From Bacteroidales bacterium (GTDB lineage: Bacteria; Bacteroidota; Bacteroidia; Bacteroidales; UBA12481), in the NCBI GenBank assembly GCA_023145515.1, contig JAGLDP010000001.1:1-58438 (forward strand): a stretch of DNA of 58,438 bases, read 5' to 3'. Positions 11,167 to 49,349 of the stretch are shown piece after piece. Each line of letters begins with the position of its first letter. Within the stretch, counting starts at the first letter, position 1. The notes beneath the pieces are model-generated. The model saw nothing but the letters and a program-made list of their open reading frames with translations, made no database searches and was not told where the DNA came from. The position numbers were made by a program, and so were the translations under genes.

Positions 11167-14100
11167 ATGGGATTTATTGATAACATACGCACCGTGGCCC
11201 GCTTCGAATTAAGAACTCTCTTAAGAAGCTGGTTTTTTAGAATCTTTTCCGTTTTAACTCTGTTGATTCTATTAGGAATGAATATAGCCACTCTCACAGA
11301 AAGTGGAGATAATAACTGGGCAATTCGCTCAATTATTTCAAATATCCCCTATATGAATATGGCCTTTCTTAATATTGCCCAGGCTCTGCTTGCCATATTC
11401 CTTGCCTCAGACTTCCTTAAAAGAGATAAAAAGCTGGATACTACTGAGGTAATCTACACTCGCTCCATGACTAACTGGGAGTATGTTTGGGGAAAGACCT
11501 TGGGTGTAGTTTTGGTTTTTGGTATTTTGAATTTTCTGGTATTTCTGATGGCTCTAATCATCAATATTGTGATATCAGGTGTTGATGTTGATTATTTGGC
11601 TTACCTGCTTTATCCATTTTTGTTAGGATTTCCTACTCTTATTTTTACTCTGGGACTGGCTTTTCTGCTTATGTCTCTGATTCGAAATCAGGCTGTAACT
11701 CTGGTTGTATTATTAGGATTAGCTGCCTTGAGTTTGTTTTTTATTCAGGATAAAGTCAATCATCTCTTTGATTATATGGCTTTTACCTTTCCGTTTATGT
11801 GGTCTGACCTAATTGGATCAGGGAACCTACAGGAGATACTGCTGCATCGTGGTATCTACCTCTTTCTTGGATTAGCCTTTATTTTTGCTACAATTCTTCT
11901 CCTACAACGTCTGCCTCAATCTCGTCCGCTTTCAATACTCTCTTTTGTATTAATGCTGGGACTACTTGTTTTGGGATTGGGTGGTGGATTTACCTACTGG
12001 ACCAGCTTTAATAACGATAAGGAGTTCAGACAGGAGGTGAAAGAACTGAATGATATGGTTAGTAAGTTACCAGTTGTGCAAATTGAGACTTATGATCTTA
12101 AATTGGAGCATCTGGATGGATCTATATCTGTAGTTGCTAGTCTGGTTTCTGAAAAGGATGCTTCTGAGCTTCCAGAAACCCTGGTGTTTTCACTTAACCC
12201 AGGATTAATTATAGCTCAATGTAGTATAAATGGTGATGCTGTGGATTTTCAGCGTGAGAAGCATATTGTTAGAGTGCAAAAACCATCTGGTGTTACAGGA
12301 AAAGTGAAAATTGATTTTTCTTATCAGGGCGTTATCGATGAAAGAATCTGCTATTTAGATATTTCAGATGAAAATCTGACAACTAAGCATGGTCCGAGTT
12401 TTATTGTTGCTTCACCTAAGCGGCATGGTATTATCCAAAAGGATTATGTTTTACTCACCCCTGAATCTGTTTGGTATCCTGTTTCGGGTGGAACCTTTGG
12501 ATCAAACCTATCGGTGATGCCGGTGAAGCAATTCAGCAGTTACAATCTTGAAGTAACAACACAGGGAGGAATGATACCTATTTCTCAGGGTAAATCATCT
12601 CATGATGGCGATAATTGGAGTTTTGACTCTCAAACTCCTTTCCATGGAATTAGCCTGGTTATCGGTAATTATGAGAGTAAAAGTCTTGAATTAGATAGTC
12701 TTCTGCTTGAGATTCACTATTATAAAGGGCATGATAGTTTTTTTGAAATTCTTGGGCTTTTGGCCGATACATTACCAATGCTTGTGAATGAAACCCTCGA
12801 GGATTACCAAAGAAGTCTTGGCTTGAGCTATCCCTATGATTTTATGAAACTGGTAGAAGCTCCGGTACAGTTTTATTCGTATGACAGGATGTGGGCAAAA
12901 GGATATGATTATGTGCAGCCAGGAATGATTCTTTATCCTGAGAACCTATCATTTCTGAAACGTGGAAACATACGTAAGGAACTGGATCGGGCTATCGACA
13001 GAGCACTAGATAGAGATGACATGTCAACAGACGAGGATCTTCAAGCTCAGATTTTTATGAATTTGATTAAAAATAACTTCATCCAGGGTGTGACGAATTA
13101 CAGGATGATTATGCGTGGAGGGAGTTATAGCTCTTCTGAGTCAGATGCTCCACCATGGAGCATATTTCCAAACTATTTTGTTTATGCCAATAATTTTGTT
13201 TCTGATGAGTTTCAAATGATCAATGCAACTCTCGAATCATATATTGGAAGCAAGATAAATGTAACACGTGGATTCGGAAGAAGTATGGGGGGAATGTCAG
13301 GCGAGGAGAAAGCTAATCTGTCTCTGGTAGAGAATTCATTTGCTGAATTATTAAATATCCCTGATGAGAAGAATATTCTGCAATCAGTGATAGAGTCTAA
13401 AGGAAAACAACTCTTTAATTACCTTGAGGCTTCAATAGGAACAGATGAGTTTATCTCATTTATTACAAGTGAACTCGAAGGTTCAAGGTATACTGATGTT
13501 CTGTTCGATGATTTTGCTCAAAGGATTTTGGATAGTTATTCTATTGATATTAGTTCTTTTATGGAGAACTGGTATCAGGGAACTGATTTGCCGTCATTTT
13601 TGGTAACAGATGTGAGGAATTATGAGATACAGGAGGGAGAGAATACTGTTTTCCAGATCTTCTTTACCATTTCCAATACAGGGAATGTGGATGGCATGGT
13701 TAATGTCAGCTTTCGTACTGGTGGTAGAGGTGGACGTATGGGTGGCATGGGCATGGGGGGAGTGAGAAGCGCCCAAATTACAACATATTCTCTTGCAGGA
13801 CGCGATGATGCTACAAACCATCTTTACCTTGTTCCTGCTCAAACTGCTTATGAGTATGCTCTCATTCTTGATGACCAGCCACGAATGATGTCGGTTAATA
13901 CTTTAATCTCATCTAACCTTCCAGCTAACCTTACTTATCCCTTCCCGGATATCGAGAAAAATCGAATGGAGGGTAGTGAATTAGCTAAGCAAACAGAGCT
14001 TGTGACTACTCTTGCCCAGCCAAATGAGCTGATAGTAGATAATGAGGATAGAGGCTTCTCTGTTCATGAAGAAGGAACCTCAAATAAACTTTCAGGAATT

Positions 14101-25715: not shown

Positions 25716-25739
25716 GTGATTCTGTGATTCTGTGATTCG
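25716..25739. repeat. tandem octamer (GTGATTCT)x2 + GTGATTCG
   Basis: Read directly from the sequence. Begins at the base after the TAG stop at 25713-25715. Confidence 0.9.
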
Positions 25740-25775
25740 GGGTTTCTCGGTTAATTGTTTTATTTTTAGGGTAGA

Positions 25776-29761: not shown

Positions 29762-31072
29762 ATGGCATTAAGTCAACTATCTATTATTCCGCAAGAGTCT
29801 ACTGGGTTTTTTATTCGTCTTAGTTTAAAGCTGCGAGATGTATTAATCAATGACTGGGGCTTATCAGAAGGATTGGCCAAATGGCTGCATGTCTTGGTTT
29901 TTATTATTTTGATTGCTTTGGTGTCATGGCTTGTTGATAAAGCCACTAAGCAGATTATTATCAGGGTGATAAGGGGGGTGGTTAAGAAAACAAAAAACCA
30001 ATATGATGATATAATTCTGGAAAAAGGTGTTTTTAACCGATTGGCTCACATTTCTCCTGCCCTTGTAGTGTATTCGATGCTTCCTACCATTATGATGGAT
30101 TTTCAGAAATCAGCTGAGCTTTTCCAAAGCCTGGCTTTGGTATATATGATTCTGGTTGCAATAATGGTAATTGTATCTTTTTTCAATGCACTGAATGAAA
30201 TCTATTTGCGCCAGGGTAATGCGCATAAGGTGCCTATCAAGGGATATATTCAGGTAGTACAGATTGTTTTGATTCTCATCGGAATTATTTGGGCCATGAG
30301 TGTGTTATTTGGCTTTGAACTGGGGAAATTCTTTGCTGGATTAGGAGCATTTGCTGCGGTACTTATGTTGATTTTTAAGGATACCATTCTTGGTGTAGTT
30401 GCTTCTATTCAGATTAGTGCCAATAAGATGATGAGCCTTGGCGACTGGGTCAGTATGCCATCCCGGAATGCAGATGGTACCGTAGTGGATATTTCTGTGA
30501 ATACGGTTAAGATTCAAAACTGGGACAAAACCATTGCCACTATTCCTACTTATGCATTTGTAACAGAGTCTTTTGATAACTGGAAAGGGATGGAGGATTC
30601 TGGTGGACGAAGGATCAAGAGATCTGTCAATATCGATATGTCCAGTGTAAAGTTCTGCAATGATGAGATGCTGGAGAAGTTTGGGAGGATTCAACTAATC
30701 GCTGATTATGTGAAATCAAAAAAGATGGAGCTGGAAGACTATAACAAGGAGATGCATGTCGATGAATCTGTCTCTGTAAATGGTCGAAGAATGACCAATA
30801 TCGGAACTTTCCGCAGGTATATGGAAGAATACCTGCAAAGTCATCCGAAGATCCATAATGATATGACATTTTTGGTACGGCAATTGCAATCAACAGAAAG
30901 AGGGATACCAATTGAAATCTATGTGTTTAGCAATGATCAGGCCTGGGCCAATTATGAATCCATTCAGTCCGATATTTTTGATCATATCCTGGCCATAATG
31001 CCAGAATTTGAATTACGCGTCTTCCAAAATCCCACAGGGAATGACTTCAAATCTCTGAGCTCTGAAAACTGA
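29762..31072 (+). CDS. mechanosensitive ion channel (MscS) family protein
   Basis: Several N-terminal TM helices, then the MscS beta-domain 'GDWVSMPSRNADGTVVDISVNTVKIQNWDKTIATIPTYAFVTESFDNW'. ATG 29762 chosen. Confidence 0.85.
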   Translation: MALSQLSIIPQESTGFFIRLSLKLRDVLINDWGLSEGLAKWLHVLVFIILIALVSWLVDKATKQIIIRVIRGVVKKTKNQYDDIILEKGVFNRLAHISPALVVYSMLPTIMMDFQKSAELFQSLALVYMILVAIMVIVSFFNALNEIYLRQGNAHKVPIKGYIQVVQIVLILIGIIWAMSVLFGFELGKFFAGLGAFAAVLMLIFKDTILGVVASIQISANKMMSLGDWVSMPSRNADGTVVDISVNTVKIQNWDKTIATIPTYAFVTESFDNWKGMEDSGGRRIKRSVNIDMSSVKFCNDEMLEKFGRIQLIADYVKSKKMELEDYNKEMHVDESVSVNGRRMTNIGTFRRYMEEYLQSHPKIHNDMTFLVRQLQSTERGIPIEIYVFSNDQAWANYESIQSDIFDHILAIMPEFELRVFQNPTGNDFKSLSSEN

Positions 31073-31082
31073 CAACTGAAAA
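31055..31082. repeat. tandem heptamer array CTGAGCT-CTGAAAA-CTGACAA-CTGAAAA
   Basis: Read directly. It overlaps the last six codons and the TGA stop of the MscS-family gene. The same unit occurs at 33939-33966. Confidence 0.85.
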
Positions 31083-33887: not shown

Positions 33888-33891
33888 GTTG

Positions 33892-33931
33892 GTTAATTAG
33901 TTAATTTGTTAATTGGTTACCTGGTTACTTG
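33892..33931. repeat. tandem octamer array GTTAATTA-GTTAATTT-GTTAATTG-GTTACCTG-GTTACTTG
   Basis: Read directly. Starts 5 nt upstream of the PQ-loop gene start codon. Confidence 0.85.
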
Positions 33932-33938
33932 CAACTTT

Positions 33939-33966
33939 CTGAGTTCTGAAAACTGAAAACTGAAAA
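33939..33966. repeat. tandem heptamer array CTGAGTT-(CTGAAAA)x3
   Basis: Read directly. Nearly identical to the array at 31055-31082. Confidence 0.9.
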
Positions 33967-33984
33967 CTTTTTCCACTTCCAAAA

Positions 33985-34019
33985 GACGAATGACGAGTAA
34001 CGAATGACGAATGACGAAT
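33985..34019. repeat. tandem heptamer array GACGAAT-GACGAGT-AACGAAT-GACGAAT-GACGAAT
   Basis: Read directly. Ends 9 nt before the ABC-F stop codon at 34029-34031. Confidence 0.9.
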
Positions 34020-34028
34020 AACTCCTGC

Positions 34029-37824: not shown

Positions 37825-39246
37825 TTGAAAATTATACCAGTGGCCAGGAGAAATAAATATCCGTTGCTTGAAAATGTACTGATTAGTGATATTGGTGCAG
37901 AAGGTAAAGCTCTTGCTAGACTTGAAAATAAAGTTGTATTTGTAACAGGTGCTATTCCCGGAGATGTTGTAGACATTCAGGTGAAGCGAAAACGCAAGTC
38001 TTTCATGGAAGGCAGAGTTGTTCGTTTTCATAAGTATTCTCAGGACAGAGAGGAGGCTGTGTGCGAACATTTTGGCGTTTGTGGTGGCTGCAAATGGCAG
38101 ATGCTACCTTACGAAAAGCAAATTGGGTTTAAAGAAAAGCAGGTTAAAGACCAGCTTGAGCGGATCGGAGGGTTCAAAGGACTGGAGCTTAATCCAATTC
38201 TGGGATCAAAAGAGTCTGAATTCTATCGGAACAAATTGGAATTTACTTTTTCCAACAAAAGATGGCTCACGGAAGATGAGATAAAAGAAGATAATGATTT
38301 CAAGGATCGGGATGCTCTGGGATTTCATATCCCCGGACTGTTTGATAAGATCGTGGATATCAAAAAATGCTGGCTTCAGCCTGATCCCTCCAATGCGATT
38401 CGCTTGGCTGTCAAAAGCTTTGCTCTTGAGAATAAACTTAGTTTTTTTGATATCCGTGAGCAGGTTGGATTGCTTAGGAATCTGATTATTCGTACTGCTT
38501 CTACCGGAGAGGTCATGGTAATCGTATCCTTCTTTGAGGATGATTCTGAGGCTATTAAGTCTTTAATGGACCATCTGAAGGATAAATTTCCGGATATTAC
38601 ATCGCTTCAATATGTGGTTAACCAGAAAAAGAATGATACGATTCTCGACCAGAGGATTATATGCTACCACGGCAGAGATCATATTTTTGAAAAGATGGAG
38701 GAGTTGAAATTCAAAATCGGACCAAAGTCGTTTTATCAGACTAACTCATCTCAGGCTTATGAATTGTATAAGGTTGCCCGGGATTTTGCTGACTTTCAGG
38801 GACATGAAACAGTGTATGATTTATATACTGGCACTGGCACGATTGCAAATTTCATGGCTTCAAAAGTGAATAAAGTAGTTGGTATTGAGGCAGTTCCGGA
38901 GGCTATTGATGATGCTAGAGTAAATGCTGAGCTAAACGGTATTACTAATGCAGAATTTGTGGTAGGAGACATGAAGGATGTTTTTAACGATACGCTTTTT
39001 ACTAAATATGGTAGGCCTGATGTTATAATTCTGGATCCCCCAAGAGCGGGCCTGCATGAGAATGTGATAATAGCATTGAAGAAAGCAAAAGCACAGAAAA
39101 TCATCTATATATCCTGCAATCCTGCAACTCAAGCCAGAGACCTGGCCTTACTGGCAGATTTATACACTATAGAAGCAGTTCAACCGGTCGATATGTTTCC
39201 CCATACTCACCACGTAGAGAATATTGTTAAAGTAAAACTAATATGA
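37825..39246 (+). CDS. rlmD: 23S rRNA (uracil-C5)-methyltransferase RlmD/RumA family
   Basis: TRAM domain at the N-terminus. Fe-S cysteines 'CEHFGVCGGCKWQ'. SAM motif 'DLYTGTGTIA'. Catalytic 'ISCNPATQARDL'. The start is a TTG and is uncertain; GTG 37840 is an alternative. Confidence 0.85.
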   Translation: MKIIPVARRNKYPLLENVLISDIGAEGKALARLENKVVFVTGAIPGDVVDIQVKRKRKSFMEGRVVRFHKYSQDREEAVCEHFGVCGGCKWQMLPYEKQIGFKEKQVKDQLERIGGFKGLELNPILGSKESEFYRNKLEFTFSNKRWLTEDEIKEDNDFKDRDALGFHIPGLFDKIVDIKKCWLQPDPSNAIRLAVKSFALENKLSFFDIREQVGLLRNLIIRTASTGEVMVIVSFFEDDSEAIKSLMDHLKDKFPDITSLQYVVNQKKNDTILDQRIICYHGRDHIFEKMEELKFKIGPKSFYQTNSSQAYELYKVARDFADFQGHETVYDLYTGTGTIANFMASKVNKVVGIEAVPEAIDDARVNAELNGITNAEFVVGDMKDVFNDTLFTKYGRPDVIILDPPRAGLHENVIIALKKAKAQKIIYISCNPATQARDLALLADLYTIEAVQPVDMFPHTHHVENIVKVKLI

Positions 39247-40691
39247 GTTCATTCGCTGTAACCTTAAAGAAATTCCCAGCTTCATTTTGGTGGGCTAATA
39301 CCATGGAGTTGTTTGAGCGTTGGGCTTGGTATGGAATGTTTATTCCACTGGCTTTGTATTTGACAGGATCAACAGATACCGGAGCGCTGGGCTTTTCTCA
39401 AGCTGAAAAGGGAACCTTAATGGGCACAGTAGTCGCCATTTTGTATATTTTACCGCTAATCACAGGAGCTCTTGCAGATAAGTTTGGATTTAGGAAGACT
39501 CTGATAGTTGCATATCTGGTACTTGCATCCGGATATTATGCAATGGGACAAGTATCGTCATATTCTCATGTTTTTCTTGTATTCCTTTGGGTAGCATTAG
39601 GAGCTGGATTGTTTAAACCAGTAGTGCAGGCAACAGTTGGTAAAACTACCGATGAAACAACTTCTTCTATTGGATTTGGAATTTTCTATATGATCGTAAA
39701 TATTGGTGCCTTTATTGGTCCTATTGTTGCATCTATTCTTAGAGGCTGGAGTTGGTCATACGTTTTTACAGCCTCCGCAATTGCCATTCTTGTCAACCTC
39801 GTTATTGTAATATTTTTCTTCAAAGAACCTGACCGTGAGAAAAATACAGAGCCTTTAGGGAAGTCAATAAAAACCATTTTTAAAAATATTTTTGTTGCTC
39901 TAAGCGATATGAAGCTTCTATTGTTTCTGATTATCATTGTTGGATTCTGGACAATGTACAATCAGTTGTTCTATACCTTACCGGTATTTATTGACCAATG
40001 GGTGCATACCGCAGCAATGTTTGATGCCATTCATAAGGTCTGGCCATGGTTGGCTTCTGCTCTTGATACACAGAATGTTGGTGCAGTGGCTGCAGAAATG
40101 CTGGTTAATGTGGATGCCATGTTTATCGTAATACTACAGATTGCTGTTTCCACATTTGTGATGAAATACAAGCCGCTAAATGCAATGATTGTGGGAATTC
40201 TGATATGCACTATTGGTATGTCATTGACCTTATTGACACAAAACGGTTTTTTCCTTGTTTTGTCAATTTTCATCTTTGCTTTAGGCGAAATGTCCTCTTC
40301 TCCAAAAACATCTGAATATATTGCTCGTATAGCACCAAAAGATAAAGTCGCACTGTATATGGGATGTTCATTTTTACCCTATGCTGGTGGTAATTTTTTC
40401 GCCGGACAAATATCCGGAGGTGTATATGAGAAATTGTCAGATAAGGTGTCATTACTTGAGAAGGCAGTTGCTGAAAATGGGTTTGTTATTCCGGCTATTT
40501 CTGATGGAGGATTCACGCAAAATGAGTACTTCACCAGGGCAGGTGAGTTATTCGGAATGAATCAGTTGGAGCTGACAGATTTTCTATGGCAAACATATCA
40601 TCCGATGAGGATTTGGTATGTTGTGTTGGGGATTGGACTAGGTACCGTATTATTACTTTGGCTCTATGATAAGCTAATATTGAAGAGCTAG
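39243..40691 (+). CDS. proton-dependent oligopeptide transporter (POT/PTR2 family MFS)
   Basis: 'FWWANTMELFERWAWYGMF' is a variant of the POT ExxERFxYY motif. 'GALADKFGFRKT'. About 12-14 TM helices. 4-nt overlap with rlmD. Confidence 0.82.
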   Translation: MSSFAVTLKKFPASFWWANTMELFERWAWYGMFIPLALYLTGSTDTGALGFSQAEKGTLMGTVVAILYILPLITGALADKFGFRKTLIVAYLVLASGYYAMGQVSSYSHVFLVFLWVALGAGLFKPVVQATVGKTTDETTSSIGFGIFYMIVNIGAFIGPIVASILRGWSWSYVFTASAIAILVNLVIVIFFFKEPDREKNTEPLGKSIKTIFKNIFVALSDMKLLLFLIIIVGFWTMYNQLFYTLPVFIDQWVHTAAMFDAIHKVWPWLASALDTQNVGAVAAEMLVNVDAMFIVILQIAVSTFVMKYKPLNAMIVGILICTIGMSLTLLTQNGFFLVLSIFIFALGEMSSSPKTSEYIARIAPKDKVALYMGCSFLPYAGGNFFAGQISGGVYEKLSDKVSLLEKAVAENGFVIPAISDGGFTQNEYFTRAGELFGMNQLELTDFLWQTYHPMRIWYVVLGIGLGTVLLLWLYDKLILKS

Positions 40692-40718
40692 CTCAGGGGT
40701 TAAGGCTCAGGGCTCAGG
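40691..40718. repeat. heptamer array GCTCAGG-GGTTAAG-GCTCAGG-GCTCAGG
   Basis: Read directly. It occupies the whole 28-nt gap between the convergent POT and LruC genes. Confidence 0.85.
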
Positions 40719-40719
40719 G

Positions 40720-42570
40720 TTATTTCTTTTTGAAAATTCGTTTCCTGTCTCTGTATCCGTCTTTATCCTGATACCAGTCGTTTCTTGAACTTCCTGCTGT
40801 TTCTGCCCATTCAATAAAGTAAAGATATGCTGAATCAACAGAAGTCTTTTCTTCAGGATATTCAAATGATGTAGGTATATCAAGAGCCCAAGGAAGATTT
40901 GATGCGGTATTGAAGTATCTGGAATTAGCAGAATTGCTATAGTCATTACCAGTTCCAAAAAGACTCTTATCCATCAGATCAGTAGGTTCTTGTCCGAATA
41001 AATGAATCTCATGATCTCGTCTCCCATTTGTGAAAATGAATGGATTATACGGAGGGGAACCCAAGTCCTCATCAGTTAATGCTTTTGTCAGGCTAATTTT
41101 AATATTGAATGTATAAGGGTCAGCTTGTTCAGAGTCTGTACGAGTATTTACAAATGATACACCAGGTACACGAACATAATTCCAAGCATCTTCAAATACT
41201 ATAATACATGTTTTATCAATATCAGACTCAGTTCCATTTCCACGAATTTTAACAATTCCTTCTTTATGTTCTTGTCCGCTTACTCCTGCAACCAAGCTCT
41301 GGTCAAATGGTAGTTGAAAACCAAACCCGTTATGGAATGATCCGCCTATTGCTCTGAGATTTATTGTAGCAAGGATTTCAATAATTTTATTTTCAGAATT
41401 TCGTACTTGATTATACCGGTAGTCCAATACCAGATCATTAAAATCATAATCTCCGGTTGCAGGCCATAGGTCTTCAAATGCTAAAGTGCCGAATCCATCT
41501 GCAGAAGGATAGTAGTCATTATATGCTCTGTCTGGATCATTTGGGTAATCATCTTCATCATCGTTAACTCCGTCATTATCAGCATCTACGTCGGCGTAAT
41601 ATGTGGATGTTACATCATCAACCCAAACAGTCTGTTTATTTCCCAGATCCTGAATTACAAGTTTTATGTAAGAGGTGTTATCGGGTACATCACTGCTAAC
41701 TTCCAGAGCTTGCCATCCATCTGGGTTCTTAATATTATAACTTGAGTTTCGGGTTCTTAGTTTTTTTCCATCATCTGAGTAAAAGTAAAGGAAGATCTTT
41801 ATCTTAATTCTATCCTGATCAGGCGATAAAGCTTTCATCTGTGCAGAAAACTCACCACCTTCTGTCCAACTAATAGTCTGAAATACCTCAACTTTCTTTT
41901 TGCTATTTTGTCCAAATTTAAGAGCTGAATTACTTTGGTATTCCTCAATACTGGCCGGACCTTTATTTCTTGTTGAAACATACCAACTTCCATCAACATT
42001 AAGGTTGTCAGTATAAGTGCTGGTTTCAGTCAAAGCCTCATCTGAAAAGTCAGAATTAGCAAATACTGAAGCCTTCATTCCCTTTACTCCGGATTTCATA
42101 CCAGGATCCTGAGAGGCTCCTTCAGGCAATTCCAGATACTTTAATTTTGTTTCCTCATCAGGGTCGGTCCAGGCATAAGGAAAGGGTAAAGTTCCCCAAC
42201 AGGCCCATGAATATATGTATTCAAAGTTGCCAGTAGTAGGAAAATACACAATCATTTGTCCGGTATTGGTAGGAATCTTATAATATAAGTGAGTAGTGTC
42301 GTCGTGAATAACTCCTCGCGTGAGCACCTGAAAGTTTGTGTCAAGCAGATAAATTCTATGGCCTTCAATGGATTCAATACTATCGTTTTGCAGCTGTAGG
42401 TCAATAGCTAAATCGACTTTAGTTGCGAGGGTCCATGAGAAGTTAGCAGGAACCTGCACTGTATTAAGACTTCGTCCGTTTTTGAAGGGATTGAAAAATG
42501 CAGAATTTTCACATCCGGAAAGAACCAGGATGATTATGATGCAAGCTGTGAGAATTCTTTTGATAGTCAT
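40720..42570 (-). CDS. LruC domain-containing lipoprotein
   Basis: Lipobox 'LVLSGC' after the ATG at 42570. Calcium-binding-type 'DVDADNDGVNDDEDDYPNDPD'. LruC signature 'FEDLWPATGDYDFNDLVLDY'. Confidence 0.82.
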   Translation of the reverse strand: MTIKRILTACIIIILVLSGCENSAFFNPFKNGRSLNTVQVPANFSWTLATKVDLAIDLQLQNDSIESIEGHRIYLLDTNFQVLTRGVIHDDTTHLYYKIPTNTGQMIVYFPTTGNFEYIYSWACWGTLPFPYAWTDPDEETKLKYLELPEGASQDPGMKSGVKGMKASVFANSDFSDEALTETSTYTDNLNVDGSWYVSTRNKGPASIEEYQSNSALKFGQNSKKKVEVFQTISWTEGGEFSAQMKALSPDQDRIKIKIFLYFYSDDGKKLRTRNSSYNIKNPDGWQALEVSSDVPDNTSYIKLVIQDLGNKQTVWVDDVTSTYYADVDADNDGVNDDEDDYPNDPDRAYNDYYPSADGFGTLAFEDLWPATGDYDFNDLVLDYRYNQVRNSENKIIEILATINLRAIGGSFHNGFGFQLPFDQSLVAGVSGQEHKEGIVKIRGNGTESDIDKTCIIVFEDAWNYVRVPGVSFVNTRTDSEQADPYTFNIKISLTKALTDEDLGSPPYNPFIFTNGRRDHEIHLFGQEPTDLMDKSLFGTGNDYSNSANSRYFNTASNLPWALDIPTSFEYPEEKTSVDSAYLYFIEWAETAGSSRNDWYQDKDGYRDRKRIFKKK

Positions 42571-42587
42571 AATATTCAAATACAAAT

Positions 42588-42595
42588 CAAAACTA
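42588..42595 (-). promoter_or_regulatory. candidate -7 promoter box TAnnTTTG upstream of the LruC gene
   Basis: Minus strand reads TAGTTTTG. It ends 17 nt before the ATG at 42570, which supports that start over 42618. Confidence 0.45.
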
Positions 42596-42649
42596 TAAAT
42601 TTTTGGATGATCTTGCAAATATCTTTGATGAACGACGTATTTTGTCTTG

Positions 42650-43255
42650 CTAATAATGATTTTTAACTTGACTTATTGAGATTTCGATAGCCTCATCCCA
42701 GGGCATCATGGCATTAAAAAGTCTGACTTTTTCAAAATCCATTAGTTGGCTCAATTGTATATCATGGAGCTCAATCAGCCCCTGATTAATCAAACTTGCT
42801 CGTCTGGTTCCGGGGAGCAGAGGATACATCGGACTCAACCATTTTTTTCCATTCCAAAATGCCAGATTTGTGAATGTGGTATCAGTGATTCGATTTCCAA
42901 TCACTATTAGTGCTTCAGTATATTTTGGGAATGTCTTTTTTAGATTGTTGAGCCTGCGGCGATTTGCGAACTTATGTGGATAGTAAATTGATTTTTCCTG
43001 ACATACTTGCAGACTCTTAATTATTGCCCTGCTATACTCATGGTAATCGATTTTGTACATGTCAGAGTTATATACAATGCGGGCTTTAAGCAGGCGTGTG
43101 TTAGGTGGCGGTGTGCTTTTAAATATTTTCTCTAATGGAGGAAGTTGGCGAATGCCCTCCAGAGCAAGCTGCGAACGAGAAATGCGTTCTTCATGGGCAC
43201 TAAGGTTATCAGGCTTTCCCTGATTAATGCGGATGCTTTCCAGTAATAGGGACAT
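42650..43255 (-). CDS. pabC: class IV aminotransferase-fold protein, probable aminodeoxychorismate lyase
   Basis: Directly downstream of pabB, overlapping it by 32 nt. 'ITDTTFTNLAFWNGKKWLSPMYPLLPGTRRASLI' matches the class IV 'N.f...g.l.TP....LpG.tR' motif. Start at ATG 43255 (MSLLLESIRI...). Confidence 0.65.
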   Translation of the reverse strand: MSLLLESIRINQGKPDNLSAHEERISRSQLALEGIRQLPPLEKIFKSTPPPNTRLLKARIVYNSDMYKIDYHEYSRAIIKSLQVCQEKSIYYPHKFANRRRLNNLKKTFPKYTEALIVIGNRITDTTFTNLAFWNGKKWLSPMYPLLPGTRRASLINQGLIELHDIQLSQLMDFEKVRLFNAMMPWDEAIEISISQVKNHY

Positions 43256-44207
43256 ACACTTTATCTTTGAGTTCCTGGTATTCTTTTTCTGCGTCACTAC
43301 GGTATGTGATGCCGCCTCCACTTTTAAAAATCAAGCCATCGGTGCTTTTTTCAATGTATCGTATCATTACAGCAGAGTCAATATTCTGTCCATCAAAAAC
43401 ACCAAAAACTCCAGTGTAATATCCACGGTCATATCCTTCTACTTCAGTCAATATGTCTACAGTTTTTTCTTTTGGAGCCCCCGTAATACTACCTGCTGGT
43501 AGTAGTTGGAACAGCCACTCTCCCATATTGTCAAGGTGATTTTCAGGCAGTTCTCCAGTAATCATTGAACTTACTTGCAGTATTTCTTTTTCGTGCGTTA
43601 TAATCTTGTCAATATATCTGAATTTTTCTACCTCCACATTGATTGCTATGCCACTCAAGTCATTACGCATTAAATCAACAATAGTATAGTGCTCAGCTTC
43701 TTCTTTTTTGTCATTGAGGATCTCATTGTGAGCATCTTCAATACTTGCATCTATCGTTCCTTTCATCGGGAAAGTTTCAATTCTAAGCCCTTTTGTGCGG
43801 ATGAATATTTCGGGAGAAAAAACAACAAACTGATTGTTAATCAAAAGCTTATATGGGGCATGACTGCTGGCATATATTTCTTCCAGACTCCAATTGATCT
43901 CTAACTTAGTAGCTTGACTGAGATTAACCAGAAAGGTATTTCCATATTCAATATGCTGAATGACTTGCCGGAATTTTTCGGTATAAGCATTTAGACTTAC
44001 CGGATGCTTTTTTAGAGATAATGGTTCTTTAGGAGGTGTATTTAATTTATCAGGGAAACCCGGAGTGGAAAATTGTATCGAGTTGGGGATACTGTCAAAA
44101 GGGTAAATCAATGGTGTAAGTCCAAGAAAATCAATTATGAACAGAAATGGCAAGCGCGCTTTGGCCATCTCATTCATCTTTTTGATATAGGTTTTGTTCA
44201 CTTGCAT
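43224..44207 (-). CDS. pabB: aminodeoxychorismate synthase component I (short, chorismate-binding domain only)
   Basis: 'PAGSITGAPK', 'RGYYTGVFG', 'GGGITYRSDAEKEYQE' chorismate-utilising enzyme motifs. 327 aa. Confidence 0.82.
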   Translation of the reverse strand: MQVNKTYIKKMNEMAKARLPFLFIIDFLGLTPLIYPFDSIPNSIQFSTPGFPDKLNTPPKEPLSLKKHPVSLNAYTEKFRQVIQHIEYGNTFLVNLSQATKLEINWSLEEIYASSHAPYKLLINNQFVVFSPEIFIRTKGLRIETFPMKGTIDASIEDAHNEILNDKKEEAEHYTIVDLMRNDLSGIAINVEVEKFRYIDKIITHEKEILQVSSMITGELPENHLDNMGEWLFQLLPAGSITGAPKEKTVDILTEVEGYDRGYYTGVFGVFDGQNIDSAVMIRYIEKSTDGLIFKSGGGITYRSDAEKEYQELKDKVYVPITGKHPH

Positions 44208-44216
44208 GCTGAAAGC

Positions 44217-44232
44217 TACCTTTGCAAAGGTA
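44217..44232. promoter_or_regulatory. perfect 16-bp palindrome TACCTTTGCAAAGGTA giving a TAnnTTTG box on each strand (divergent pabB / pabA promoters)
   Basis: Read directly and self-complementary. The plus-strand box ends 16 nt before the pabA ATG (44241). The minus-strand box ends 17 nt before the pabB ATG (44207). Confidence 0.55.
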
Positions 44233-44240
44233 AAAAAACA

Positions 44241-44825
44241 ATGCTTCAGATGCGGCTATTGATTTTGGATAATAGAGACTCTTTTACTTTTAATCTGGCA
44301 GAGAGTTTTAGAAAGATCGGAGTTGAAGATGTTAAGATCTTTAACTCCGAAAGCTATAGCATTGAGCAATTGGCAGATTATGATCGGATTGTTTTGGGGC
44401 CTGGTCCGGGTTTGCCACAAGACCATCCTATATTGTTTAATCTATTGAACTCTCTGAAACCACATCAATCCGTTTTGGGTATTTGTCTCGGACATGAGGC
44501 TCTGGCTATTCATTATGGAGGACAAATCAGGCATCTTAATAGAGTGTTTCACGGGGATGAAGGAAAGGTTTTGTGGAAGAATGCCCCGGATTATCTTAGT
44601 AAAAACGTTCCTGATGGCTTTGCTGTTGGCTTATATCATTCATGGATTATTGATGAAGCCAGTTTGCCAGAAGATATCGTAGTTACAGCCTTATCTGAGA
44701 ATGGATTAATAATGGGAATAAAGCATGCAAATCTTCCATTATTTGGTTTTCAGTTTCATCCTGAGTCATTTATCACGAAATTTGGTTTGCAGTTATTGAG
44801 TAATTGGTATTATCAGTCGATGTAG
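44241..44825 (+). CDS. pabA: aminodeoxychorismate/anthranilate synthase component II (glutamine amidotransferase)
   Basis: 'ILDNRDSFTFNL', catalytic 'GICLGHEAL' and 'FQFHPES'. ATG 44241 chosen. The track start at 44073 would run through pabB and the promoter palindrome. Confidence 0.85.
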   Translation: MLQMRLLILDNRDSFTFNLAESFRKIGVEDVKIFNSESYSIEQLADYDRIVLGPGPGLPQDHPILFNLLNSLKPHQSVLGICLGHEALAIHYGGQIRHLNRVFHGDEGKVLWKNAPDYLSKNVPDGFAVGLYHSWIIDEASLPEDIVVTALSENGLIMGIKHANLPLFGFQFHPESFITKFGLQLLSNWYYQSM

Positions 44826-44829
44826 AAAT

Positions 44830-45423
44830 ATGAAGTCTTCTAAAAACAATCAGAAATCCAAGGGAAGTAAAATCCGAGGAAATTATCAACAAAAAAAGGG
44901 TCCGGTATTACTCTATTTTACTATTTTTATTGTAGTAAGTATAGCCATGATTACTTTAAATCAAACAAGAAAGAAGAATCTCAATAGTGAACAATCCGGA
45001 CAGTATCCTCAAGCGAGAAATGATAATCCGAGTCAGTTCAATAAGGAGGGTGAACTGAACTTTCTGGATAAAGACGATAAGCTTATCACAAGCATAGATA
45101 TTGAGATAGCTGATGATGATTATCAGACACAGCGAGGATTGATGTACAGACGTAGCATGAGAGAGGATAGGGGGATGCTGTTTATATTTCCGGATATAGA
45201 GGAGCGATCCTTCTGGATGAAGAACACTTACATTTCTTTGGATATACTGTACATTGATGCTAACAAAGAGATTGTTAGTATAGCTGAGAGTGTTGCCACT
45301 AAATCTGAGGAATCAATCTGGTCTGGTGCCCCGGCAAAATATGTTATTGAGGTTGTGGCTGGCTTTGTGGCTCAGCATCAGATTGAGGTTGGAGATCGGT
45401 TTTCTTTTAAGAGAGTATACTGA
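44830..45423 (+). CDS. DUF192 domain-containing protein
   Basis: N-terminal TM anchor. 'QRGLMYRRSMREDRGMLFIF...FWMKNTYISLDILYID' fits the DUF192 core. Confidence 0.75.
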   Translation: MKSSKNNQKSKGSKIRGNYQQKKGPVLLYFTIFIVVSIAMITLNQTRKKNLNSEQSGQYPQARNDNPSQFNKEGELNFLDKDDKLITSIDIEIADDDYQTQRGLMYRRSMREDRGMLFIFPDIEERSFWMKNTYISLDILYIDANKEIVSIAESVATKSEESIWSGAPAKYVIEVVAGFVAQHQIEVGDRFSFKRVY

Positions 45424-45430
45424 TTATAGG

Positions 45431-45482
45431 GCTCAAGGCTCAAGGCTCAAGGCTCAGGGCTCAGGGCTCAGGGCTCAAGGCT
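45431..45482. repeat. tandem heptamer array (GCTCAAG)x3-(GCTCAGG)x3-GCTCAAG-GCT
   Basis: Read directly. 7.4 copies fill 52 of the 59 nt between convergent genes. No inverted-repeat potential. Confidence 0.95.
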
Positions 45483-45872
45483 TTAATTCATTTTTCTTTG
45501 TTTTAGGTCTATTAGTCCGGCATAAATGTGCAGTATTCCGGTGAAGAAAAAGATTGGGATAACTGCATCCGGAATGATGCTTCCTATGTTTATTGCGAAA
45601 ACGATGTAGCTTACAATAATCAGTATTCCGCCGGCAATTTCTTTCTGATTTGCCCAGATTATTCCAAAGAACATAGTCAGGATGCAGACAAAGCTTATGG
45701 TTTCTGTACCATTCAGACTTATTAATCGGTCAATACCGCCCTGACCGATAGCATTTATCAGCATAATAAGAAAGAGTAAAATGCCAATACCACGAGCTAG
45801 TATTCTCACCAGCTTCAGGATTTTCTCATCCTGTTCAGATTGTTTTTGAGATTTCTTGATGTCGCTTGTCAT
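45483..45872 (-). CDS. small 4-TM membrane protein (function unknown)
   Basis: 129 aa. A charged N-terminus followed by four hydrophobic helices. 4-nt overlap with the upstream GH20 gene suggests co-translation. Confidence 0.55.
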   Translation of the reverse strand: MTSDIKKSQKQSEQDEKILKLVRILARGIGILLFLIMLINAIGQGGIDRLISLNGTETISFVCILTMFFGIIWANQKEIAGGILIIVSYIVFAINIGSIIPDAVIPIFFFTGILHIYAGLIDLKQRKMN

Positions 45873-47893
45873 TTTGTGCTGTTGATTAGCTTTTCAATTC
45901 CAGAAACAACCATTAACTCAGTTTCTCCGTAGGGCAATTTGGCTTGTTTGCAAATTTTAAGAGCATATTTACGCCATTTTTCAGGAGGGTGTTCATTGTT
46001 TTGAAGATACTTAACTGCCTGTAATCCTAGAAAGGAAATAGCCTGCAGATTATTTGCCAAAGGTTTGATTTCATGCAGAATAGGGTTGTCATCAAGTACC
46101 TTTGTCAGGTTCTGATGATTAGCATACCAGTTATTCAGAAGGTCATTAATGTTCTCTAAATCATTTTGATCTCCGCCATTAATAAGGCGCTCAACGCTTA
46201 GATTAAAATTGCGGGCCACAGGGGCATCCGGACGAGTAGCATCAACAAAGCGGGTGTAAGGCATCAGGGCATTAATATCGCTCTGGGCATTCCGGCCATA
46301 ACGCTTAACAGATTCTACAACATCAGCCAGAGTGCGTAGTTCCTGAACTCCTTTACCACGACACAAACGTCTGAGCATCATGTTGTAGTTTTTTTCATGG
46401 GTTAATCCTAGTTCTTCAAGCTGAAGGCTTAGTACATCCATTCTCGCATACATGCTTTGCACATCTCTGACATCGCTTTTGCTCCACAATCTTTCAGCAA
46501 TAGCAGCTGTTCGGGGCCATATCCGACTGTCAATCGTTTCATGGGTTACCTGCTCACCCCACATGGTAGCTTCACCACCCAGAACCAACCTGGCCTGCTC
46601 AGGTGTTAGTCCCAGATCATCAGGCAGAGGGTCATTGAGATAATGAAAGGATGCTGGTTGTATAAGGTCAATATAATATCCGTTGCTAAGCATTACAGAA
46701 TATCCGGCTTTAGCCGCTGCTGCCAGTCCTTTTTGTCCGCGCCAGCTTTGAATGACTACATTTTTAGAAATATCCGGATGCTGGATTTCATCCCACCCAA
46801 CCATCTGTTTGCCATTTTTTGTTAGTATTTCAAGGAGTCTCTTGTTAAACATTGCCTGTAACTCATGATTATCTTTTATTCCCTTTTCTTTCATGAATTT
46901 TTGAATATGTTTGCTCTGCTTCCAGTGTTTTCCATTATTCTCATCACCTCCAATGTGCAGATAAGTATCAGGAAAAAGACCTGCCATTTCAGTGAGAAAA
47001 GCATCAAGAAATTCATAGGTGCTTTCTTTGCTTGGATCTAACACAGGGTTCATTACTCCCCATTCACGTTCAATGGAATACTTGCCGGGTACAGTGGCCA
47101 GCTCAGGATATCCCACCAGCCATGAGGTAGCATGACCTGGGATGTCAAACTCTGGAACAACCCTTATTCCCCTATCAGCTGCGTAACGAATAATGTCTTT
47201 CATTTGCTCCTGGGTGTAGTACATACCCTCTCCTCCCAGCTCATGTAATTTTGGAAATACTTTAGATTCAATCCTGAAGCCTTGGTCTTCAGTGAGATGC
47301 AGGTGTAATACGTTCATTTTTACGGCTGCCATTCCGTCGATATTTCGCTTAATAACGTCAACCGGCAGCCAATGTCTGGCAGGATCAATTAGTAGTCCTC
47401 TCCATGGAAAACGAGGAGAATCGTTGATTTGAGCTTCGGCAAAATAGTATCCTTCCTGATCAGAATTAAGCCATTGAATTAGAGTTTCTAATCCCCGCAA
47501 GGTCCCAATACTGGTTTTTGAATGAAGTTTAATGAGATTCTGAGTGATGTGTATACTGTATGATTCATCTACTCTCAGATCAAGCTCTCCGGTTTCATCA
47601 ACCGTGATTTCCATGCTGGGATTAGCAGGATTGTTCATAGACGGTCGTATTCTACCTTGCTGAATAAACAATCCTGTTCGTCCGGCTAATCGTCGCAAAA
47701 AATCATCTGCTCTGTCGTACACAAAATCTGCTGGTAATCCTTTTACCACAATTGAGAAGTCTTTATCAATAAGAAGATTTTGAGATCCGGTTTTTATTTC
47801 TTTCGGTAATGGCATTAATGAACCACCTTGCTGTGATATGGCAATAGAAAAACTGACTGCTAAGCTAATCAGCAATAATCCAAATTTCTTCAT
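45869..47893 (-). CDS. beta-N-acetylhexosaminidase (GH20)
   Basis: Signal peptide. 'FPWRGLLIDPARHW', 'MNVLHLHLTEDQGFRIE', 'HIGGDE' GH20 catalytic motifs. Confidence 0.9.
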   Translation of the reverse strand: MKKFGLLLISLAVSFSIAISQQGGSLMPLPKEIKTGSQNLLIDKDFSIVVKGLPADFVYDRADDFLRRLAGRTGLFIQQGRIRPSMNNPANPSMEITVDETGELDLRVDESYSIHITQNLIKLHSKTSIGTLRGLETLIQWLNSDQEGYYFAEAQINDSPRFPWRGLLIDPARHWLPVDVIKRNIDGMAAVKMNVLHLHLTEDQGFRIESKVFPKLHELGGEGMYYTQEQMKDIIRYAADRGIRVVPEFDIPGHATSWLVGYPELATVPGKYSIEREWGVMNPVLDPSKESTYEFLDAFLTEMAGLFPDTYLHIGGDENNGKHWKQSKHIQKFMKEKGIKDNHELQAMFNKRLLEILTKNGKQMVGWDEIQHPDISKNVVIQSWRGQKGLAAAAKAGYSVMLSNGYYIDLIQPASFHYLNDPLPDDLGLTPEQARLVLGGEATMWGEQVTHETIDSRIWPRTAAIAERLWSKSDVRDVQSMYARMDVLSLQLEELGLTHEKNYNMMLRRLCRGKGVQELRTLADVVESVKRYGRNAQSDINALMPYTRFVDATRPDAPVARNFNLSVERLINGGDQNDLENINDLLNNWYANHQNLTKVLDDNPILHEIKPLANNLQAISFLGLQAVKYLQNNEHPPEKWRKYALKICKQAKLPYGETELMVVSGIEKLINSTK

Positions 47894-47903
47894 AATGAAT
47901 GTA

Positions 47904-48365
47904 TTAGTCTTTTTTAAAAATATCGAATATACTGTAGTATATCATAAATAGTCCGCTCAAAGGTAATGAGAGATATACATATCCCAAGGGAATTCTGAGT
48001 GCAGGGGATATCTGCTCAAGTGTAAGAGTTATAAAAACCAGGCGTATTCCGCCGACAACGAGTACTGACAGGGCAAATAGTATTACCATCACATTAATAA
48101 AAATAAGGAGGTTCTCCTTCTTTTTACCTTTTAACTTAGAGGGCAGGATGTCAATTGCCAGATGTCTCTTTTTGCCGTGAGCATAGGCTGATCCAAATAA
48201 GCCAACCCACATGAGCAGGAATCTTGCCAGCTCATCTGTAAAGGAGCTGGGTGATTTTACCAGATATCTGGCAGCCACCTGCCAAACAACGTCCAGCACC
48301 AGGATTATCATTAGGATTATTAAGAGAGTTCCGAGAACCTTATCGATTTTTGCTTTTACTTTCAT
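47904..48365 (-). CDS. TRAP transporter small permease (DctQ family)
   Basis: 153 aa with four TM helices. 'DELARFLLMWVGLFGSAYA' is a DctQ-type motif. Immediately downstream of the DctP-like gene. Confidence 0.8.
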   Translation of the reverse strand: MKVKAKIDKVLGTLLIILMIILVLDVVWQVAARYLVKSPSSFTDELARFLLMWVGLFGSAYAHGKKRHLAIDILPSKLKGKKKENLLIFINVMVILFALSVLVVGGIRLVFITLTLEQISPALRIPLGYVYLSLPLSGLFMIYYSIFDIFKKD

Positions 48366-48371
48366 TCCTTT

Positions 48372-49349
48372 TTAGTTCTCAGATATTGCGTCTATTGCCT
48401 CAATAATTGCTTTCAGCTCCGGGTCTTTTTTATACTGTTCTTTAAGAGGCTTTACTTTTTCCATAAAAGGTTTTTTGTCAGGGTAAGATACTTCAACCCC
48501 TGCATCTTTTACGGCTTGTAATGATTCCTCTTCAGATTTCTTCCAGAGCTTACGCTGATATTCCTTAGATCTGTTGACTGCAATGGTGAGCCATTCTTTT
48601 TCCTTCTTGTTTAGTTTATTCCAGGTGTGGGTGCTGATCAGCATCACATCAGGAATAGAAGTATGCTCATTGATTGAGTAGTATTTGCAAACCTCATAGT
48701 GATGAGAAAGGTAGAAGCTTGGAGGATTGTTTTCTGCCCCATCAACCACGCCACCCTGCAGTGCAGTGTATAGTTCCCCCCATGAAATTGGTGTTGCAGC
48801 ACCTACAATGAGTTTGACCATCTCAATAGAGGTTGGACTAGACATCACCCTGATTTTCATTCCTTCCAGATCTTCAGGTTTTAGAATTGGGCGGTCTTTT
48901 GTGTAGAAACTTCTGCTTCCTGAATCATAAAAACATAGTCCTCGAAGCCAGAATTTTTGTCCGCTTTCCAAAATTGTTTGTCCAATTTGACCATCCTGCA
49001 CAGCATAAGCATGCTCTCTGTTTTGGAAGATATATGGGATGCTAAGCACTTTATATGCCGGAGCAAATCCTTCCATTACAGCTGCAGATACTTTTGTAAT
49101 ATCTACTGACCCAATTTGCAGCAGTTCTAAACATTGTCTTTCTGTTCCTAGTTGCTGACTAGGGTATATGCGGGTAGTTAGCTGACCATCAGATAGTTCT
49201 TCAAGCTGCTCTGTCATATAAACCATTGCTTGATGAACGGCATGTTTGGTATCTAATCCGTGTGCAAGAATTAGTATTTTTTGTGATTCAGTACTACAGG
49301 ATATAAGGATTATACTGGAGAAAAGAAAGATCGCTAATCTATTTATCAT
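48372..49349 (-). CDS. TRAP transporter substrate-binding protein (DctP family)
   Basis: Lipoprotein-type signal ('SIILISCS'). 'KIRVMSSPTSIEMVKLIVGAATPISWGELYTALQGGVVDGAENN' is the DctP-family core. Confidence 0.85.
   Translation of the reverse strand: MINRLAIFLFSSIILISCSTESQKILILAHGLDTKHAVHQAMVYMTEQLEELSDGQLTTRIYPSQQLGTERQCLELLQIGSVDITKVSAAVMEGFAPAYKVLSIPYIFQNREHAYAVQDGQIGQTILESGQKFWLRGLCFYDSGSRSFYTKDRPILKPEDLEGMKIRVMSSPTSIEMVKLIVGAATPISWGELYTALQGGVVDGAENNPPSFYLSHHYEVCKYYSINEHTSIPDVMLISTHTWNKLNKKEKEWLTIAVNRSKEYQRKLWKKSEEESLQAVKDAGVEVSYPDKKPFMEKVKPLKEQYKKDPELKAIIEAIDAISEN

Follow-up and report, generated by a model that had tools for sequence, protein, structure and literature searches.

GCTCARG heptamer arrays between convergent genes of a Bacteroidota genome: probable members of a lineage-specific class of heptanucleotide microsatellites

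Two heptamer arrays in convergent gaps

The window analysed here is a stretch of 58,438 nt from Bacteroidales contig JAGLDP010000001.1 (C1), which belongs to a metagenome-assembled genome (MAG) of the phylum Bacteroidota (GCA_023145515.1, hereafter G000; 2.58 Mb, 213 contigs, 63% complete, 39% G+C). It contains two tandem arrays of a heptanucleotide with the consensus GCTCARG, each lodged between the stop codons of a pair of convergent genes (Table 1). Array 1 takes up the full 28-nt gap between the stops of the transporter gene and the DUF4842 gene, while array 2 accounts for 52 nt of a 59-nt gap that runs from the stop at 45423 to that at 45483, is oriented in sense relative to the DUF192 gene and, read by its variable base, has the block order AAA GGG A. 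The flanking genes were placed by open reading frames (ORFs) and Pfam, and the arrays were also called by Tandem Repeats Finder. The double unit GCTCARGGCTCARG has 7 matches in the window, compared with 0.06 expected from shuffles. As read from the sequence, GCTCARG contains no stop codon in any frame, whereas its complement CYTGAGC provides TGA in every frame.

A first-pass annotation of this DNA, made by a model from the letters alone, had placed both arrays correctly, including the proportions of the two gaps that they fill (28/28 and 52/59 nt). Its names for the neighbouring genes were roughly right: they encode a POT (MFS/POT) transporter, a DUF4842 protein (its LruC), a DUF192 protein and a membrane protein (DUF7670). 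Its statement that the other convergent genes of the window simply overlap held for two of six pairs (-13 and -14 nt); on our crude gene map the remaining four are separated by 3, 221, 263 and 441 nt.

Table 1. Heptamer arrays and flanking genes in the window, arrays in frame within G000 genes, and sites with replaced units in the sister genome G002
Feature	Position	Strand	Description
GCTCARG array 1	40691..40718	+	GCTCAGG GGTTAAG GCTCAGG GCTCAGG; four units, the second degenerate (GGTTAAG)
GCTCARG array 2	45431..45482	+	3x GCTCAAG, 3x GCTCAGG, 1x GCTCAAG and a partial GCT; ~7.5 units
MFS/POT-family transporter gene	39243..40691	+	first base of array 1 is shared with its TAG stop
DUF4842 (+DUF4114) protein gene	40720..42618	-	TAA stop at 40720-40722, one base (40719) off array 1
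DUF192 protein gene	44830..45423	+	7 nt lie between its TGA stop and array 2
DUF7670-like small membrane protein gene	45483..45872	-	stop codon directly adjoins array 2
CTGAAAA-type heptamer array	31062..31082	+	overlaps the 3' end of a gene on the + strand
CTGAAAA heptamer array	33946..33968	+	further heptamer family in the window
ACGAATR heptamer array	33986..34022	+	further heptamer family in the window
In-frame array, glutamyl-tRNA synthetase (GluRS)	gene at C148:26710-28299 (L112:12711-14300)		21 nt encoding GSGLKAQ inside the anticodon-binding domain
In-frame array, GH116 glycosidase			42 nt forming a linker
In-frame array, GH20 hexosaminidase			located between catalytic domain and C-terminal domain
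In-frame array, GNAT-like protein			
Unit replacement	G000 C14		G000: CCTTTTG CCTTCCTG; G002: (CCTTGAG)3
Unit replacement	G000 C79		G000: (GTCTTTC)2; G002: (CYTGAGC)11
Unit replacement	G000 C135		G000: (TCGTTAT)-type x4; G002: (GCTCARG)17+

A dispersed family among several heptamer families

The two arrays are not isolated. G000 contains 17 GCTCARG arrays of at least two units, 13 of which have at least three, and many more are present in its relatives, so that the earlier proposal of a dispersed repeat family rather than slippage at one spot is borne out. Single GCTCAAG and GCTCAGG heptamers are not over-represented in G000, and no flanking sequence is shared among the 17 arrays.

GCTCARG is in turn one of at least eight heptamer unit families that coexist in this genome, others including CTGAAAA, ACGAATR/ACGAAAG, AAGACYN, GCACAAG and GCAGAWT. 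When all tandem arrays of at least three copies are counted, period 7 is the commonest in G000, with 116 arrays compared with 54 of period 8 (the second commonest) and 34 of period 6, and with 7 in the shuffled genome used as a control. Arrays of different unit families often lie side by side, and the long ones show multi-unit higher-order patterns. A composite of this kind is seen in the window itself, where in a single 141-nt gap (33888-34028) an octamer array of the GTTAATTA type is followed by one of CTGAAAA and then one of ACGAATR, a layout that recurs on other contigs. Another octamer array of the window (25716-25747) consists of three exact copies of GTGATTCT. The 38-kb contig C148, which encodes housekeeping genes such as GluRS, carries 17 arrays of period 7 and so exceeds the average of the genome tenfold.

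Distribution among relatives and occurrence inside genes

The distribution of the unit was analysed at three levels: within the family (24 genomes besides G000), in the order outside this family (16 genomes) and in the phylum (a sample of 400 genomes). (GCTCARG)3 was found in 11 of the 24, patchily across three genera and with up to ~150 matching positions per genome, in none of the 16, and in 4 of the 400, at one or two loci each. The density of heptamer arrays of any unit is likewise uneven, ranging per 100 kb from 13.6 in G031 (another family of the same order) through 4.5 in G000, 3.3 in G011 and 0.5 in G027 to 0 in G025. G011, a closed genome of the same family, has heptamers of other units and lacks GCTCARG. 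In G031 a single 140-kb region (C4:1-140000, L209-L215) contains 19 heptamer arrays with units that are all different, one of them present in 26 copies.

Four GCTCARG arrays of G000 lie in frame within real genes (Table 1). An alignment of GluRS from 16 relatives revealed three insertion hot spots occupied by different repeat-derived peptides depending on the genome: SGLKAQG repeats encoded by GCTCARG occupy two of them in G010 and a third in G013, while G007 and G012 have no inserts. The in-frame inserts of GluRS stem from tandem repeats of 7-8 nt, and the length of the protein varies from 499 to 605 aa across the relatives.

Copy number and unit turnover at orthologous sites

A direct comparison is offered by the public sister-species genome MAG274 (G002; its contig C313 is JAYEFL010000313), whose coding flanks are 82-90% identical to those of G000 at the DNA level. 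The site of array 1 carries 4 copies in G000 and ~21 in G002, the site of array 2 carries 7.5 and 25 (L009:6408-6582, L173), and a third shared array has ~5 units in G000 and ~14 in G002, where a 21-nt higher-order unit is apparent; short-read MAGs may, however, show long arrays with collapsed copy numbers, and many arrays of the relatives lie at contig ends. Three other sites shared by the two genomes are likewise occupied by a heptamer array in both, with units that differ (Table 1), and the units found in G000 at these replaced sites come from families abundant elsewhere in G000.

The same is seen at greater distances. A different heptamer array follows the DUF192 gene in G003, G004, G007 and G010, and other heptamers follow the POT gene in G003 and G014; G001 has none at either place. 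The DUF192 proteins are only 51-62% identical between these genomes, of which all but one have an array at the 3' end of the gene. Together with the unit swaps at the sites shared with G002, these differences indicate that array sites outlast the sequences of their units. Two metagenome scans aimed at copy-number variation within the species, in which the gene ends were represented by degenerate patterns, gave no matches.

The comparison with MAG274 also bears on the possibility that the arrays are artefacts of a fragmented assembly, for which the 213 contigs and incompleteness of G000 and the frequent location of long arrays at contig ends in relatives could be cited. We consider this extremely improbable: an independent assembly has the same arrays at both sites, those of the window (28 and 52 nt) are below the typical read length, and no array of G000 lies within 150 nt of a contig end.

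A difference in copy number between species, combined with a unit length that is not a multiple of three, is also what would be expected of contingency loci, in which copy-number change switches neighbouring genes on or off (phase variation). Both arrays of the window, however, lie downstream of all four flanking stop codons, and there is no promoter region between convergent genes. A change in their length therefore cannot shift a reading frame or the spacing of a promoter, which makes such a switch very unlikely here.

The replacement of units at conserved sites by families abundant in the same genome raises the question of a dedicated machinery that would write or move the arrays, making them mobile or selfish DNA instead of passive products of slippage; a recombinase, a mobile element with the unit on board or the synthesis of repeats from a template at breaks could be imagined. 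Such a machinery would also accommodate the occurrence of one unit at many loci without flanking homology, the adjacent arrays of several families in composites such as that at 33888-34028, the patchy occurrence across three genera of one family and the in-frame insertions in conserved proteins, which recall the Rickettsia palindromic elements. Gene conversion or template switching between arrays could nevertheless yield the same pattern. The GCTCARG arrays showed neither target-site duplications nor a terminal structure nor an associated gene, and no candidate enzyme turned up, although no search aimed at one was made. Altogether, we regard a dedicated machinery as an unlikely explanation.

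Placement relative to genes

Among intergenic gaps of at least 15 nt in G000, a period-7 array is present in 16/135 convergent, 37/711 co-directional and 5/254 divergent gaps. The difference between convergent and divergent gaps is significant (Fisher test, p = 8e-5 for gaps of at least 15 nt and p = 0.026 counting all gaps), but these placement statistics are only approximate, because they were derived from a crude longest-ORF gene map. In co-directional gaps 36 of 49 arrays are closer to the upstream stop than to the next start (median distances 12 and 33 nt, p = 0.0014). GCTCARG arrays beside stops are mostly in sense relative to the upstream gene (~12, compared with 3-4 in antisense; G000, G002, G010 and G013). 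These counts support the first-pass annotation in that the arrays are not placed at random with respect to genes but favour 3' ends. Its association of the arrays with convergent gaps was too narrow: they also follow stops in co-directional gaps and occur in frame inside the GluRS, GH20 and GH116 genes.

CTGAAAA-type arrays of G000 show a placement of their own. Several are found in sense orientation ~8-18 nt upstream of start codons (C28:6082, C186:12456, C29:4819 and C46:11234), and others in antisense directly after stops (C165:7741 and C192:11041).

Secondary structure and the question of termination

The first-pass annotation had pointed out that the arrays stand where convergent transcripts must end but, as direct repeats, cannot form terminator hairpins. 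The absence of self-structure in the two window arrays was confirmed: on both strands they fold no better than shuffled sequences (z-scores +0.8, +0.7, -0.9 and +1.3). Nothing was found to indicate that transcripts end in them: a terminator scan of positions 38000-48500 reported no terminator-like site at either array and Rfam gave no match with E <= 1 in 40000-46000. An intrinsic (Rho-independent) terminator was rejected, given that the fold z-scores indicate no stable G+C-rich hairpin and the scan found no hairpin followed by a U-tract. As far as such predictions go, they lend no support to single arrays acting as terminators or insulators.

Pairs of arrays in inverted orientation behave differently. 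A convergent gap of contig C79 of G000 (11195-11266; L115:1180-1290) is filled by ACTCARG/GCTCARG units that face (CYTGAGC)4 across 19 nt, and the predicted hairpin has a stem of ~28 bp with a dG of -41 and -50 kcal/mol (z -4.7 and -5.8). It is possible that this inverted pair constitutes a bidirectional terminator built from the GCTCARG unit. In G013, a relative rich in GCTCARG, the arrays often form inverted pairs 75-100 nt apart (z -4.3; L140:1501-1666, L151:1501-1670, L136:41-168). The spacers of these pairs are themselves roughly palindromic, with AAGATAA and TAAGTTT heptamers nested symmetrically. An origin of the family from amplified arms of terminator hairpins was discarded, as only one intergenic inverted pair is present in G000 (G013 has many). 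Elements of the repetitive extragenic palindromic (REP) or MITE type, and larger mobile elements, were also rejected: the flanks of the 17 arrays share nothing, the window arrays do not fold, and inverted pairs are found only at other loci.

A function at 3' ends could still be exerted without a hairpin, if the unstructured, periodic RNA or DNA recruited a multimeric factor (Rho, an S1-like protein or another RNA- or DNA-binding protein) that ends or insulates convergent transcription. The adjacency of the arrays to stop codons, their enrichment between convergent genes and their sense bias after stops point in this direction, but any tolerated insertion would show the same 3' bias. The presence of at least eight unrelated unit families in one genome argues against a single sequence-specific factor, even if the sites are kept across genera while the units change. 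The strong intergenic hairpins of the inverted pairs in C79 and G013 would suit a role at 3' ends, but the GCTCARG unit is not C-rich and G-poor, i.e. it is unlike classical Rho sites. Moreover, G001 manages without an array at either window site, and arrays also occur in frame inside essential genes such as that for GluRS, where termination would be harmful. We therefore consider functional 3'-end elements unlikely.

The favoured explanation

The reading that we favour, and consider probable, is that the window arrays are ordinary members of a set of lineage-specific, slippage-prone heptanucleotide microsatellites, of the class of long simple sequence repeats (LSSRs), and that they are kept where insertions are tolerated. 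The TAACTGA repeats and the STRRs of cyanobacteria, discussed below, are counted in the same class. The arrays would lengthen and shorten through replication slippage or unequal exchange and would survive where added DNA harms least, namely behind stop codons, in the gaps of convergent gene pairs and in loops of proteins, in which the unit would encode Leu alongside residues that are small and for the most part hydrophilic (A, Q, G, S, R/K). Conversion between arrays or template switching may homogenise or replace the unit types within one genome. At their two loci, the window arrays would then probably serve only as spacers of variable length, placed within the 3' untranslated regions of the four flanking genes.

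Several observations weigh against this explanation. Neutral tolerance does not account for the spread of one unit to many loci, nor for the replaced units being drawn from families abundant in the same genome, which would point to a directed process of some kind, such as conversion or templated synthesis, or else to selection acting on the unit. The array sites persist across deep divergence, as at the DUF192 gene, longer than expected for a neutral microsatellite. Finally, the position statistics rest on the longest-ORF gene map and are approximate.

Taking the persistence of sites at face value, one could propose that the post-stop array sites are ancient conserved 'slots' across the family, whose heptamer content is repeatedly overwritten by the dominant unit families of each genome. 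We hold this to be quite unlikely. If true, it would mean either that dispersed microsatellites are actively written or converted from a template, or that a 7-nt-periodic spacer at 3' ends has a function independent of its sequence; the latter version could include inverted pairs as bidirectional terminators built by slippage.

Heptamer arrays are among the least understood classes of bacterial repeats, and this lineage represents a compact test case, with sites shared across species, three- to five-fold changes in copy number, unit swaps at fixed sites and in-frame arrays in essential proteins. In practice, the arrays break short-read assemblies and create protein inserts of variable length, and both should be expected in the annotation and comparison of these MAGs.

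Comparison with known systems

The first-pass annotation had likened the arrays to the short tandemly repeated repetitive (STRR) sequences of heterocystous cyanobacteria, which are tandem heptanucleotides at many dispersed intergenic loci, with several unit families per genome, and to which, to our knowledge, no function has been assigned with certainty. The analogy is apt as to the kind of repeat, the GCTCARG arrays being dispersed tandem heptamers that are mainly intergenic. They are, however, not members of the STRR family, which is defined by the cyanobacterial units STRR1-3; the GCTCARG unit differs and its hosts belong to another phylum.

A partial parallel is also found in the Rickettsia palindromic elements, which are inserted in frame in protein-coding genes. 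As in the case of the arrays in GluRS, GH20 and GH116, conserved proteins accommodate short repeated DNA in frame at their surface, but the Rickettsia elements are palindromes of 100-150 nt rather than tandem heptamers.

The TAACTGA repeats, reported from Beggiatoaceae, cyanobacteria and five Bacteroidetes (MacGregor 2015, PMC4679880), resemble the GCTCARG family in several respects. They too form dispersed heptamer arrays without an assigned function, one strand of which has stops in all three frames; in-frame copies turn up now and then in peripheral parts of proteins, further heptamers are mixed into the same intergenic regions, and indels in 7-nt steps are observed between strains (PMC4679880). 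MacGregor (2015) proposed that they occupy tolerated sites (PMC4679880). In the Beggiatoaceae genome BOGUAY, however, they are mostly in forward orientation just upstream of start codons (PMC4679880), whereas GCTCARG arrays stand just after stops. With a different unit, and following stops rather than preceding starts, the GCTCARG arrays cannot be assigned to the TAACTGA family. The CTGAAAA-type (CTGAWAA) arrays of G000 come nearer to it, with a unit that differs by a single base and with several arrays placed 8-14 nt ahead of starts.

The GGGNATC repeats of Xanthomonas and Nostoc are likewise over-represented in non-coding DNA, close to stops (<50 bp) and few between divergent ORFs, and they also favour positions between aligned ORFs (PMC4692102). 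They differ in having a G-tract, in forming quadruplexes and in their preference for four units (PMC4692102), whereas GCTCARG has no G-tracts.

Our literature search returned no bacterial paper on the GCTCARG unit, and as far as that search reached, neither the unit nor this uncultured Bacteroidota family has been described; heptamer tandem repeats as such have already been reported in Bacteroidetes (PMC4679880). The best fit is with the LSSRs, defined as simple sequence repeats of 5-11-nt units in the work of Mrazek et al. (2007) as summarised in PMC4679880. According to the same summary, LSSRs resemble the present arrays in being tandem repeats far beyond the length expected by chance, with heptamers dominant, mostly non-coding, sporadic among lineages and variable in copy number (PMC4679880). 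The window arrays have a 7-nt unit repeated head to tail (4 and 7.5 copies), exceed chance expectation and differ in copy number between related genomes. The GCTCARG arrays are a further example of this already described class of bacterial repeats.

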